Positions 9,475-25,093 of a DNA stretch of 56,309 nt are shown here, piece after piece. The stretch is from an uncultured Gammaproteobacteria bacterium (GTDB lineage: Bacteria; Patescibacteriota; Patescibacteriia; Magasanikbacterales; GWA2-37-8). The DNA is taken from NCBI GenBank assembly GCA_964496095.1, contig CAZBWU010000006.1, forward strand, positions 1-56,309, in the 5' to 3' direction. Both the position numbers and the translations under genes were made by a program. Position 1 is the stretch's first letter, and each line of letters opens with the position of its first letter. Under the pieces are notes generated by a model, which was not told the DNA's origin, searched no databases, and worked only from the letters and a program-made list of their open reading frames with translations.

Positions 9475-9558
9475 AGCATGCCTGCCCCGTAGCGGTCGCC
9501 TTTGCGACCTGCTACTGGGGTTGCGGAAGCACTGCAATTTAGAGCTAAAGTAGAATAA
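9475..9558 (+). pseudogene. Displaced duplicate of the comM 3' end, interrupted by a 40-bp hairpin element
   Basis: AGCATG|element|TTGCGGAAGCACTGCAATTTAGAGCTAAAGTAGAATAA reads HVAEALQFRAKVE* once the element is removed. Confidence 0.9.
9481..9520 (+). mobile_element. 40-bp bulged-hairpin element (CCCCG..CTGGGG family), copy 1
   Basis: CCTG CCCC GTAG C GGTCGC CTTT GCGACC T G CTAC T GGGG. Confidence 0.8.
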
Positions 9559-9622
9559 ATTTGCCCAAAACCAAAGTCTTTGCTACAATTCTAACCAATC
9601 AAAAAATAACTAACTACAACAT

Positions 9623-10339
9623 ATGATGAAAAAAATAATCATCGCCCTAGTCATAGTCACCGTAGCCATTGTCGCCTTTTTCTTCTTTAAGAAAACACCT
9701 GCCGTCCAAGCGCCAGTAGAAGAAAAGGTAAACCAAACACCTCCAATACAAACCGAAGTAAAAACCGAACCAACGTCCACCCCGCCAGCTAAAGAAGAAA
9801 CAAAAAAACCAGAGCCAATAGATTTAAGTCAATATAAAACACCAATTATGTTAATAGATCAAAAGAAAAGCTATACAGCTAAAATGAAAACAAGCGTTGG
9901 GGAAATAGATATAGAATTAAATGTAAAAGACACTCCAGTTACAGCCAATAATTTTGTTTTCCTCGCCAAGAAAAATTTCTATGACAATGTTATTTTCCAC
10001 CGTGTCATCAAAGGCTTTATGATTCAAGGTGGTGACCCAACCGGCACTGGCTCAGGCGGACCTGGCTACAAATTTAATGACGAACCATTTACAGGAGAAT
10101 ACACTCGTGGGACAGTGGCTATGGCCAACTCTGGTCCAAATACCAACGGCAGTCAGTTTTTCATTATGCATGCTGATGTCGGTTTACAAAAAGCTTATGT
10201 AATTTTTGGTAAGGTTGTAAAAGGTTTGGATGTGGTAGATAAGATTGCCGAAGCTGAAACTACCTGGGGTGGAGATGGTGCTATGTCAAAACCAGTTGAA
10301 CCAGTCAAGATTTTATCAGTTGAGATTGTTGAGAAATAA
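9623..10339 (+). CDS. Cyclophilin-type peptidyl-prolyl isomerase with N-terminal membrane anchor
   Basis: FHRVIKGFMIQGGDPTGTGSGGPGY, AMANSGPNTNGSQFFI. Confidence 0.93.
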   Translation: MMKKIIIALVIVTVAIVAFFFFKKTPAVQAPVEEKVNQTPPIQTEVKTEPTSTPPAKEETKKPEPIDLSQYKTPIMLIDQKKSYTAKMKTSVGEIDIELNVKDTPVTANNFVFLAKKNFYDNVIFHRVIKGFMIQGGDPTGTGSGGPGYKFNDEPFTGEYTRGTVAMANSGPNTNGSQFFIMHADVGLQKAYVIFGKVVKGLDVVDKIAEAETTWGGDGAMSKPVEPVKILSVEIVEK

Positions 10340-10348
10340 ACTCCTCAC

Positions 10349-10441
10349 TGTCATTCTGAGCGGAGCGAAGAATCTTTCCGTTAGCAAAACTTATTCTCGG
10401 AAAGATCTCTCGTCGCCCTTGGGGGCTCGCTCGGGATGACA
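10349..10441. repeat. TGTCAT...ATGACA palindromic element
   Basis: TGTCATTCTGAGCGGAGCGAAGAATCTTTCCG...CGGAAAGATCT...CTCGGGATGACA. Confidence 0.8.
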
Positions 10442-10443
10442 AC

Positions 10444-10476
10444 AAAAAAAGACTTACCAAGTGGTAAGTCTTTTTT
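10444..10476. terminator. Bidirectional intrinsic terminator
   Basis: A-run GACTTACC-AAGT-GGTAAGTC T-run between convergent genes. Confidence 0.85.
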
Positions 10477-10484
10477 ACTTTTAT

Positions 10485-23333: not shown

Positions 23334-23439
23334 AGTTTAGTGTTAATTAATTAAGCCCCTAGATTATCCGTAAATTCGGATGTGTCCAAGGTTGTTTTAA
23401 TCAATATGATATGCTAATATAGCGTTTGCGTCAAGCAAT

Positions 23440-24762
23440 ATGCATTATAAAATTTTACTAAAAACCCTAAAGGTTTTGATATATGTAAAGAGATTATTTT
23501 GGTGGTTTGGGGCCAAGATTTCTTTTGTTTTAGCCAAAATTTTCTCTCCTTTCTGGCGATTTGTTGGTTTTATTCACTATAAAGTAAGCTATTTCTTTAA
23601 AAAAGTGGCTAATATTAGCGGTTTTGATGGAAATTTGGTTAAAAGAGATAATTTACAGATCGTTATTTTTCTAATTTTAATCGTGGTGGCTCTACCCCAA
23701 ACCAAGCTTTATGCTAAAAAAGAATTTGTTGGTATACCTGGTCAAAAAACCTTAGCATACTCACTGTCTCCGGCTGACGAGGACTATAGTGTAGAAGAGA
23801 TTACGGCTACTGTGGGTAGTGCCGAAAGTGACAACAGTAACGCTTCAGTATGGAAAACCGGCTCTTTGACACAGGATCAGTATATGAGAGCAAATCTCGA
23901 TAATATGGAGCTAGGCACAGTCGTGGCAGGAGGCTCTGCCTTGTCTAAGCCCATTATTATGTCAGGCGTCTCGGTAAATGGAGGGCGTGAAGACATTATT
24001 GATTATATAGTTGAGGCCGGAGATTCCCTGGGAAGTATCGCGGTTCAGTTTCAGGTTAGTATAAATACAATTTTGTGGGAAAATAATTTGGGAATGAACT
24101 CTTATTTACACCCAGGTGATAAATTGAGAATTTTGCCAGTCACGGGGTTAAGTCATGTTATAAGAAAAGGTGATAATTTAAACAGGATCGCCAGTTTGTA
24201 TTCAGCTACAGCCGAAGATATTATTAAGCAAAATAAATTAAAAGAAGACGGGACTGATTTGGTGGCCGGAGAAAAGATTATTATTCCAAATGGTGTCAAA
24301 GTAGCTACACCAAAAACACCTGTCGTTACTGCTAGAACTGTGGCTCGTATCGCGGCGCCACCTGGCTCTAGACAAGCGCCAAGTGTTTCAGGTTATGTAT
24401 GGCCATCTGGCACAAGACTGATTACTCAATATTTCACATGGAAACATCACGGTGTTGATATTGCTGGGGGAAGCTTTTCTACTCCAAACTATGCATCTAA
24501 AGCGGGTGTAGTTGTTAAATCTCAATGCGGTTGGAACTCTGGATATGGCTGTGTAATTATTATTGATCATGGTGGTGGTATCAAGACCCTCTATGGCCAC
24601 AACTCTCGTTTGCTTGTTAATGTAGGTGATCAGGTAGAGGCTGGACAAACAATCGGTATGATGGGCAACACCGGAAATGTTCGTGGTCGTACTGGTATTC
24701 ACTTGCATTTTGAAGTCTGGATAAATGGCGCCCGCACCAACCCATTCCAGTTTGTAAAATAA
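23440..24762 (+). CDS. LysM-domain M23 peptidase
   Basis: Two LysM repeats; HHGVDI, LYGHNS, HLHFEV. Confidence 0.92.
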   Translation: MHYKILLKTLKVLIYVKRLFWWFGAKISFVLAKIFSPFWRFVGFIHYKVSYFFKKVANISGFDGNLVKRDNLQIVIFLILIVVALPQTKLYAKKEFVGIPGQKTLAYSLSPADEDYSVEEITATVGSAESDNSNASVWKTGSLTQDQYMRANLDNMELGTVVAGGSALSKPIIMSGVSVNGGREDIIDYIVEAGDSLGSIAVQFQVSINTILWENNLGMNSYLHPGDKLRILPVTGLSHVIRKGDNLNRIASLYSATAEDIIKQNKLKEDGTDLVAGEKIIIPNGVKVATPKTPVVTARTVARIAAPPGSRQAPSVSGYVWPSGTRLITQYFTWKHHGVDIAGGSFSTPNYASKAGVVVKSQCGWNSGYGCVIIIDHGGGIKTLYGHNSRLLVNVGDQVEAGQTIGMMGNTGNVRGRTGIHLHFEVWINGARTNPFQFVK

Positions 24763-24928
24763 GCGTCCCTTATGGACGTTTGAAATTGCGTCGAGTTTCG
24801 GAAAAGTAAATAAATTTTCTTTTCACTCAACTCTAGCAATTATAACAATCATACCCTGGGCACTTATTCTTAGCTTAGCCCAGGGTTGAAAAAATCTTTG
24901 CAAAGTGGTATTGTTTTATCACTTCCAT

Positions 24929-25000
24929 GGTCGCGTAGCCAAGCAGTAAGGCAGGGGTCTGCAAAACCCCTATGCGTGGGTGCAATTCCCACCGCGACCT
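24929..25000 (+). tRNA. tRNA-Cys(GCA)
   Basis: GGTCGCG acceptor / CGCGACC-U; anticodon arm GGGGT-CTGCAAA-ACCCC; U73 discriminator. Confidence 0.95.
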
Positions 25001-25002
25001 CT

Positions 25003-25080
25003 ATGTCGAGACTCATTATTATCGATGGAAACCCCAGCACTAGAACCGCTGAGGCGGTTCAATGCGGGGCAAGTGCGCTA
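25003..25080 (+). pseudogene. Displaced duplicate of the polA 5' end, interrupted by a 42-bp hairpin element
   Basis: ATGTCGAGACTCATTATTATCGATGGAAA|element|TGCGCTA reads MSRLIIIDGNAL; the live start at 25094 reads MSRLIIIDGNAI. Confidence 0.92.
25032..25073 (-). mobile_element. 42-bp bulged-hairpin element, copy 4
   Basis: CTTG CCCC GCAT T GAACCGC CTCA GCGGTTC T A GTGC T GGGG. Confidence 0.8.
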
Positions 25081-25093
25081 TAAGTATTATTTT

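Follow-up and report, generated by a model that had tools for sequence, protein, structure and literature searches.

Several well-described mobile elements bring with them a substitute for the end of the gene into which they integrate, for instance phage 21 and e14 at icd, the SXT/R391 elements at prfC, the islands that target tRNA and tmRNA genes, and the decayed CIME forms of such elements. We report here on a 56,309-nucleotide (nt) stretch of DNA from an uncultured member of the Patescibacteria (contig CAZBWU010000006.1, contig C6 of its genome, referred to throughout as the window), in which a hairpin of 40-42 nt stands beside a differently spelled gene end at three genes, comM, hppA and polA. 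The likeness to the elements named above extends to a new gene end in the insert that keeps the target functional, a native end that is displaced and dead, the targeting of tRNA 3' ends and conserved genes, and cargo in some versions. The cassette described here differs in being only 85-115 nt long, with no gene and no linked integrase; moreover, one hairpin family serves many targets, the dead copy is split 4-15 nt from its edge, and 5' gene ends are used as often as 3' ends. The principle is known from phages, islands and mitochondrial endonuclease elements, and dispersed hairpins are classical biology of REP sequences and miniature inverted-repeat transposable elements. The combination of a 40-nt hairpin with a 30-80-nt recoded end, lacking any gene, placed at many targets and at both gene ends and found phylum-wide, does not seem to be described in Rfam or in the searchable literature, in agreement with an initial annotation of the window, which had recognised no described family.

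The genome under study, labelled G000, is a metagenome-assembled draft of 1.0 Mb in 14 contigs with 38% G+C; other G numbers denote relatives from its genus or the wider family. The initial annotation had claimed that a hairpin of one polarity recurs beside recoded replacement gene ends, and this was confirmed at comM, hppA and polA as well as at many further sites. Read in the orientation of the hairpin, all three genes share one layout: an intact gene end, a linker of 0-13 nt, a target-like flank of 6-7 nt, the hairpin, and then the rest of a second, dead end of the same gene (Table 1). The comM 3' end reads ...GAG CAT G/TC GCC ... GAA TAA / AGCATG / CCTG-hairpin / TTGCGG...GAATAA, and that of hppA, on the minus strand, ...AAC CCT A/TG ATA ... 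AAG TAA / AACCCGA / CTTG-hairpin / TGATTAAGG...AAATAA. At the 5' end of polA, the identity of which was assigned via a conserved N-terminal motif and comparison with relatives, the order is tRNA-Cys / ATG TCG ... GGA AA / antisense hairpin-CAAG / TGCGCTA / TAAGTATTATTTT / ATG AGC AGG.... Removal of the element in silico restores the frame of the dead copy exactly at each gene (at comM, 9475-9480 joined to 9521-9558 reads EHVAEALQFRAKVE followed by a stop), and there is no target-site duplication, as had been proposed. It had also been pointed out that the junctions follow TAA, TAA and TTA; at comM and hppA these triplets are indeed the live genes' own stops, whereas the one at polA is the in-frame stop of a dead leader open reading frame (ORF) of 27 codons, closed by a TAA 10 nt upstream of the live ATG.

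The live and dead ends encode nearly the same peptide in different codons. For comM 8 of 39 nt differ, with one amino acid change (P = 2e-4); for hppA 18 of 63 nt differ and no amino acid (P <5e-5); and for polA 12 of 36 nt differ, again with one amino acid change (P <5e-5), where P is the chance of so few amino acid changes when an equal number of substitutions is placed randomly. The view that the replacement end is foreign or recoded, and not a simple tandem duplicate, is upheld, with P <= 2e-4 per gene. A simple tandem duplication and a long target-site duplication were both rejected, since the dead copy keeps its peptide and yet nearly all wobble positions differ, as was an origin by a diversity-generating retroelement, since the differences are not adenine-specific.

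We note that these structures come from a 14-contig metagenome-assembled draft, which raises the question of artefact. All three junctions are reproduced without mismatch in Logan contigs, which are independent single-run assemblies: SRR10036082_17438 (17 kb) covers the comM junction, the rnpA insert described below and the hppA junction, while SRR10036081_35722 and SRR10036082_18018 cover the tRNA-Cys, the dead polA start, the hairpin and the live polA. Dozens of independent assemblies show the layout too. Together with the recoding statistics this leaves assembly chimera or chance similarity a negligible probability, and artefact is ruled out for practical purposes. A further Logan contig, SRR10036080_15544, begins within the comM hairpin (at ACTGGGG, window position 9514), which may reflect an assembly break or a polymorphism of the site.

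Table 1. Positions of the gene ends, hairpins and other features discussed (window coordinates, except where another contig of G000 is named)
Feature	Position	Strand	Evidence or remark
comM, Mg-chelatase-like competence helicase, intact	7960-9474	+	Pfam Mg_chelatase/ChlI, E 2e-93; same end residue in relatives
comM live end	F' 9431-9436; R' 9437-9474 (38 nt, recoded); TAA 9472-9474	+	read directly
comM flank F, AGCATG	9475-9480	+	repeats 9431-9436; codons E-H-(V); in frame with dead copy
comM hairpin, type A, CCTG plus CCCCGTAGCGGTCGC-CTTT-GCGACCTGCTACTGGGG	9481-9520	+	R1 52.4 bits, E 1e-10; covariation
comM dead 3'-end remainder	9521-9558	+	continues into intergenic sequence conserved in relatives
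rnpA hairpin, type B, CGAAG plus CCCC..GGGG	18425-18466	+	R1 53.2 bits; adds AKPRTEPLSGSGTG in frame, no duplicate
hppA dead 3'-end remainder, then native terminator region	21245-21300	-	read directly, compared with relatives
hppA hairpin, type A, CTTG plus CCCCGCAGTGAAGC-TTTTT-AGCTTCTACTGCTGGGG	21301-21340	-	R1 53.2 bits
hppA flank F, AACCCGA	21341-21347	-	live counterpart AACCCTA at 21404-21410
hppA live end R', last 56 nt, recoded	21348-21403	-	16/21 codons recoded, 0 amino acid changes
hppA, H+-pyrophosphatase, intact	21348-23333	-	Pfam H_PPase, E 3e-273
dead polA start, ATG TCG AGA CTC ATT ATT ATC GAT GGA AA	25003-25031	+	abuts tRNA-Cys (24929-25001)
polA hairpin, type A, antisense to polA	25032-25073	-	R1 62 bits, E 3e-13
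polA flank F, TGCGCTA (polA orientation)	25074-25080	+	extends dead frame as N-A-L
polA linker, TAAGTATTATTTT	25081-25093	+	its TAA ends the dead leader ORF; similar linker in G002
polA, intact	25094-27769	+	recoded live terminus comprises the first ~36 nt (MSRLIIIDGNAI); ATG at 25094
GIY-YIG ORFs of G000	C4:79480-79722; C4:13142-13468; C8:20540-20911; C8:20881-21231; C8:32668-33039; C9:26880-27152		motif search

The hairpin is a member of a dispersed family with the GC-rich consensus CYTG-CCCC-GYAnn-GAnnnn..loop..nnnnTC-T-nnTRC-T-GGGG, in which a pair of bulged T residues on the 3' arm is conserved. Among 14 aligned hairpins 90.7% of the cells are paired and seven pairs have double changes; the covariation score was matched by none of 500 shuffles, and slid controls were 35-48% paired. 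Two subtypes can be told apart, type A (CYTG..GGGG followed by T), found at gene ends and other sites, and type B ((GC)GAAG..GGGG followed by A), found as in-frame sense insertions. Copies were located with a covariance model, R1, in the genus and family and with a degenerate pattern across Patescibacteria. The genus has 69 of them in 10 of 16 genomes (28 in G003, 13 in G015, 11 in G000 and none in six), 13 of the family's 41 genera have them, and the pattern matches at least 119 contigs from Patescibacteria, including Saccharibacteria, Microgenomates, Parcubacteria lineages, Doudnabacteria and Kazan. An Rfam scan of window positions 9000-26000 returned only the tRNA-Cys above the gathering threshold and nothing at the hairpins; a phage origin was discarded because the pattern went unmatched in IMG/VR.

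The hairpin also occurs apart from duplicated gene ends. Some copies are nested inside the loops of others, and for 59 of the 162 distinct copies the surrounding ORF continues unbroken through the hairpin. The part of the window considered in the initial annotation itself contains a fourth hairpin, in rnpA, where a 42-nt in-frame insertion is present in G000 only; all nine relatives with an aligned rnpA read FFPKKE-DPETF at this point, and comparison of the filled and empty sites reveals no target-site duplication. The nested copies, the G000-specific rnpA insert, the open-ORF copies and the patchy distribution argue that the hairpin alone is mobile. The only feature shared by the insertion sites is a T (rarely an A) at +1, the bases preceding the flank being variable. 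Two side observations belong here. In G003 a non-coding repeat of ~450 nt that holds a hairpin copy occurs at C45:2321-2793, C52:58-525 and C24:~6115-6548, with 80-96% identity and no Rfam match. The 3' end of intergenic hairpins often meets TGACA to give ..GGGG/TTGACA, so that these copies sit at, or create, a -35-like box (for instance G015:C6:2389-2431, G003:C22:9871-9911, G002:C1:29368-29410 and G003:C85:1121-1164).

About one-fifth of the copies lie within gene ends beside a duplicate, as sought by peptide-level scans of the hairpin flanks and by direct reading. G000 itself has two further cases, at the 5' ends of dnaE (C1:203805) and lepA (C2:32579). In the genus and family the layout recurs at comM (G003), polA (G002, G112, G113), dnaE (G015, G084), uvrA (G015, G003), uvrB (G116), gap (G003), yebC (G012, G109) and hppA (G111), and across Patescibacteria at lepA, a translational GTPase gene, uvrA, uvrB and tRNA 3' ends. 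The insertion point lies no more than ~80 nt from the first or last base of the conserved gene or tRNA. The same sites are reused in different genomes, namely comM in G000 and G003, hppA in G000 and G111, polA in G000 and G002, dnaE in G000 and G015, and yebC in G012 and G109. At hppA even the flank recurs, as ACCCGA/AACCCGA (6-7 nt), at the same site in G111, which belongs to another genus. The flank of 6-7 nt noted initially is correct for comM, hppA and polA, whereas across the family it ranges from 4 to 15 nt, with equal lengths where different genomes share a site. No linker separates live end and flank at comM and hppA, and 5' ends have one of 1-49 nt. A genome-wide scan of the kind first suggested thus bears out the recurrence of gene-end duplicates but not a constant flank length, and many copies are without a duplicate.

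In every clear case the polarity is the same: read in the direction of the hairpin, the live end comes first (5') and the dead remainder last (3'), and the hairpin is accordingly sense at gene 3' ends and antisense at 5' ends. Its orientation tracks the side of the substitute end and not transcription, which points to a site acting at the level of DNA rather than an RNA signal. A terminator or processing site as the main role was rejected, given that transcripts carry opposite strands at 5' and 3' ends. Elsewhere in Patescibacteria, at sites that include atpG and a gene for a PEP-utilising enzyme, the same ends surround 0.9-2 kb of cargo, among which are HepT/MntA, MazF, AbiEii with DUF6922 and a NUDIX gene; the G000 copies have none. 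With or without cargo, the hairpin forms the distal end of the cassette.

Two individual loci deserve mention. At G029:C23:8728-8773 the polarity is reversed, an antisense hairpin lying one or two codons before the stop, with a second, recoded version of the gene's final 26 codons, complete with a stop codon, after it. At uvrA of G015 (C16:13385-13426) the frame is open from the "dead" ATG across hairpin and linker into the live copy, which itself has no ATG; judged from this reading frame, the protein probably carries an N-terminal duplication together with a hairpin-encoded peptide. The larger inserts between tRNA-Cys and polA in G005 and G011 were set aside, as they hold unrelated small genes and not nucleases.

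A comparison of live and dead ends with relatives, also suggested at the outset, was informative for hppA in that its dead end is host-like, whereas hppA distances proved saturated and comM was too variable for an identity-profile test. When aligned with relatives, the dead hppA copy shows 9-15 differences in 63 nt, compared with 13-18 for the live copy. The identity of hppA to the close relative G015 is 0.92 over the 60 nt that precede the duplication and 0.70 over the last 60 nt of the live gene; the dead end has 0.86. The junction between dead polA and tRNA-Cys is the same as the native polA junction in G013. The host-like dead end and divergent live end of hppA, together with this polA junction, suggest that the dead copy is the native one. 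Downstream of the dead comM and hppA copies the flanks match the relatives' intergenic regions (the sequence following dead comM, TTGCTACAATTCTAAC, is also present in G014 and G006), though in a tandem layout such matches are compatible with either direction. Between genomes, the dead ends differ by 11 nt and 2 amino acids for comM (G000 and G003), by 10 nt and 2 amino acids for polA (G000 and G002) and by 12 nt and 1 amino acid for hppA (G000 and G111), with P <= 6e-4 in each case. Since these differences are almost only synonymous, the dead copies must have been functional gene ends while they diverged. Either the insertions took place independently and not long ago, or the insert is reversible and some of the population still relies on the native end.

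How such an arrangement might come about is less firmly grounded than the arrangement itself, and we are much surer that a mobile hairpin with an imported gene end truly exists than of any mechanism. Within Patescibacteria the hairpin is a mobile stretch of non-coding DNA, found either solo, often in frame within genes, or with a substitute gene end beside it. We give even chances to the proposal that in the second setting it is the terminal module of a miniature integrating cassette that has no gene. The cassette would consist of a substitute end R', then either a linker (0-49 nt) or cargo (as much as 2 kb), the flank F of 4-15 nt, and the hairpin; its insertion would part F from R in the native end. 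The gene would then read through the imported, differently spelled end, and the native end, split by the hairpin, would be left dead. The free cassette might be a circle or a single strand, in which F-hairpin-R' would mimic the target F-R with an extruded hairpin; strand exchange at the 3' foot of the hairpin (GGGG/T) could be the work of a trans-acting enzyme able to recognise single strands or DNA structure, the address being provided by homology of F and R' to the target. Heavy synonymous recoding would stop the two direct copies from recombining the insert away. We favour this proposal because it explains the polarity, the cross-genus reuse of sites, why dead ends look like host sequence, why tRNA genes are targeted and why some versions hold cargo. 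We also speculate, as a tentative idea that is unlikely to be right, that the hairpin with an arm of 40-80 nt might act as a protein-less "home-and-rescue" module, in which the arm would base-pair with the target and replace the displaced end, a conserved Patescibacteria enzyme recognising only the folded hairpin would exchange strands at the 3' foot, and a change of arm would suffice for retargeting.

Several results weigh against a dedicated integrating cassette. No candidate for a dedicated enzyme or recombinase was found in the draft genomes examined; the 85-115-nt inserts contain no ORF, and no integrase or recombinase was seen in the cargo examined. Every genome of the genus, the hairpin-free ones included, has one Xer-like tyrosine recombinase (PF00589), and an extra tyrosine recombinase was on this ground rejected as the enzyme. 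Searches for PF01797 (Y1_Tnp) gave no match in G000, in G003 with its 28 copies or in G015 with its 13. Pattern searches of metagenome contigs revealed neither a free or circular form nor an empty site in a near-identical strain, the joined-flank 32-mer and 41-mer patterns for empty sites going unmatched. A few in-frame hairpins near 3' ends are without a duplicate. When hairpins that occupy one gene in different genomes are compared, their similarity equals that of unrelated copies (0.71 versus 0.71), and in a short-sequence phylogeny of the hppA ends, where distances are saturated, the substitute ends do not cluster; these two findings leave the joint travel of hairpin and substitute end without support. 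Finally, the variable lengths of flank and linker and the imperfect microhomology at the junctions also fit a template-switch origin.

In such an origin, a hairpin-only insertion near a gene end would stall lagging-strand synthesis at its CYTG side, and the nascent end would copy a homeologous, hairpin-free gene end (from transforming DNA of a relative, for example) before returning to its own template at microhomology 4-15 nt upstream. A working gene would be left only by tracts containing the stop or start codon, so that survivors would be found at gene ends and with minimal linkers. We consider this possible if unlikely. It requires no dedicated enzyme, it accords with the absence of visible co-travel and with the presence of comM and other competence genes, and F-hairpin-R is in look indistinguishable from a hairpin-only insertion. 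The bases before F imperfectly resemble native sequence, and linkers are mostly minimal, with 1-13 nt at many 5' ends in addition to the comM and hppA cases. In G000 six of the seven type A copies have their sense strand on the leading-strand template, but this bias is not significant among 41 type A copies from the wider set (26 versus 15, p = 0.12). Against a template switch also speak the need for two steps, the first of which would kill a tRNA gene or essential gene end, the equal length of F at the same site in different genera, and the toxin-antitoxin cargo within the atp operon, which is hard to derive from a donor flank.

Alternatively, as the initial annotation had supposed, an HUH enzyme of RAYT or IS200 type, or a similar nuclease of single-stranded DNA (ssDNA), might nick a few bases 5' of a resident hairpin and join the end to the 3' end of a diverged relative's DNA, patching the gene. 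RAYT and IS608 cleave ssDNA upstream of a guiding hairpin. So do nucleases of the Ssn family (PMC11893778), and the bulged T, the lack of a target-site duplication and a flank that is always 5' of the hairpin would suit such an enzyme. Y1 genes occur in 20 of 100 family genomes, and an HUH-type enzyme encoded outside these draft genomes may act in trans. The specific proposal of an HUH nick at a fixed distance of 6-7 nt is not borne out, and this explanation as a whole is quite unlikely: in addition to the missing PF01797 matches noted above, the hairpin (28 of those 100 genomes) and Y1 occur together in 6 where 5.6 are expected, so that Y1 genes do not follow the distribution of the hairpin, none of 30 Y1 loci in the family has a hairpin within 1.5 kb, and the flank distance varies. 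The repeat that flanks the six small GIY-YIG genes of G000 is not this hairpin, and it is left unexplained why the foreign DNA should end right at a gene end. A last alternative, which we regard as very unlikely, holds that the sites are CIME-like scars of classical integrating elements, integrase islands reduced to their att region with the hairpin as a terminator or att-arm feature. Substitute gene ends, tRNA targets and cargo-bearing versions are what such elements would leave, but a single hairpin family at more than 10 different target genes is not, nor are hairpins that also stand solo within ORFs or nested in one another. The lack of an integrase in the cargo examined, the single tyrosine recombinase per genome, and a hairpin that splits the dead copy rather than adjoining an uninterrupted repeat further oppose this explanation.

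Other hairpin systems provide partial parallels for the proposed cassette. Integron cassettes carry folded attC sites, and CTX phage integrates via a folded hairpin by means of Xer. Like these, the present element would be a promoter-less cassette without a recombinase, having a folded ssDNA hairpin with extrahelical bases at its 3' end and, commonly, toxin-antitoxin cargo; unlike attC, it has CYTGCCCCGYA..TRCTGGGG and no R''/R' boxes (RYYYAAC / GTTRRRY), there is no attI platform or array but single inserts, and the targets are gene ends picked by similarity to the cassette and not a fixed site. Nor was an IntI recognised, each genome having a single tyrosine recombinase, though no search for IntI-specific features was made. 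With REP/REPIN-RAYT and IS200/IS605 hairpins the family shares a GC-rich imperfect hairpin with bulged bases, dispersal, the lack of a target-site duplication and an asymmetric 5' head (CYTG). It differs in having no cognate, co-occurring or adjacent Y1 gene, in occurring as single hairpins and not as pairs, and in the substitute end; REP sequences are mainly extragenic, while the copies described here are mostly intragenic or at gene ends. PATE, the miniature elements derived from IS200/IS605, likewise leave no target-site duplication, but have distinct left and right hairpins and a fixed tetra- or pentanucleotide target, as opposed to a single hairpin with no fixed target.

To our knowledge, Rickettsia palindromic elements do not bring a recoded replacement gene end, and the present hairpin, at 40-42 nt, is much shorter. 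The resemblance lies in the hairpin-only copies, which are translated in frame within essential genes (here rnpA, dnaE and uvrA), as are the Rickettsia elements and other in-frame intragenic repeats (PMC10969869). Turning to gene ends, Paquin et al. reportedly found in 1994 that in Allomyces atp6 a mobile mitochondrial endonuclease gene brings a foreign gene C-terminus. Similar cases are described elsewhere (PMC4019555). These elements, and synthetic "home-and-rescue" drives, have the same order of gene, foreign recoded C-terminus, insert, and native C-terminus as pseudo-end; here there is no endonuclease ORF and the insert is a 40-nt hairpin.

If the cassette does integrate as proposed, it would be among the smallest known integrating elements, at ~85-115 nt and with no gene, and would have solved the problem of life inside essential genes by means of a differently spelled spare gene end, with the logic of "home-and-rescue" gene drives and phage att sites cut down to a hairpin and an arm. 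The conservation of the hairpin across Patescibacteria points to a widely shared enzyme that reads a folded DNA hairpin. Such an enzyme might be developed for inserting DNA in a single-strand or structure-guided manner, and the hairpin offers a handle on the movement of DNA between ultra-small uncultured bacteria. The hairpins are also a hazard for annotation, as they give rise to dead gene ends, false upstream ORFs and in-frame inserts of 14 residues in core genes.

The GIY-YIG genes of G000 were considered with regard to the Ssn nucleases, GIY-YIG enzymes that act together with NTS/SRM hairpin repeats, cut ssDNA a few bases upstream of the hairpin and shape integrated transforming DNA (PMC11893778). 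A directional hairpin repeat with a conserved upstream head is common to both systems, but the hairpin described here misfits the SRM consensus HGTCWY.. (PMC11893778). A motif search found six small GIY-YIG ORFs of 81-124 amino acids in G000 (Table 1), and their flanks carry members of another repeat family, GTCATYCYGAGC...GGATC-type hairpins, distinct from the 40-nt hairpin, on account of which a link between GIY-YIG/Ssn enzymes and the hairpin was rejected. The GTCATYCYGAGC-type repeat precedes several of the GIY-YIG ORFs and resembles the SRM/NTS partners of Ssn nucleases; a GIY-YIG/GTCATYCYGAGC-type feature is also present downstream of the dnaE hairpin, at C1:~203700.

As for the remainder of the window, Pfam matches were obtained for comM, hppA, dnaA, dnaN, rpmH, rnpA, yidD, tig and an M23 peptidase. 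The replication origin is located near 18 kb, with dnaA (minus strand) on one side and rpmH (plus strand) on the other, at a sign change of the GC skew; in this origin region (14953-19059) minus-strand dnaN and dnaA lie opposite plus-strand rpmH-rnpA-yidD. Three hairpin cassettes are found at distances of up to 9 kb from the origin. At 31115-31174 there is a perfect 27-nt inverted repeat (6-nt spacer); it is AT-rich and not related to the hairpin family. Positions 49000-56309 form a very large ORF region of ~129-nt (43-residue) repeats, SGRYAYVAN..ISVVDISNP, which are LVIVD/beta-propeller-like and arranged in higher-order repeats of ~1.2-1.7 kb.

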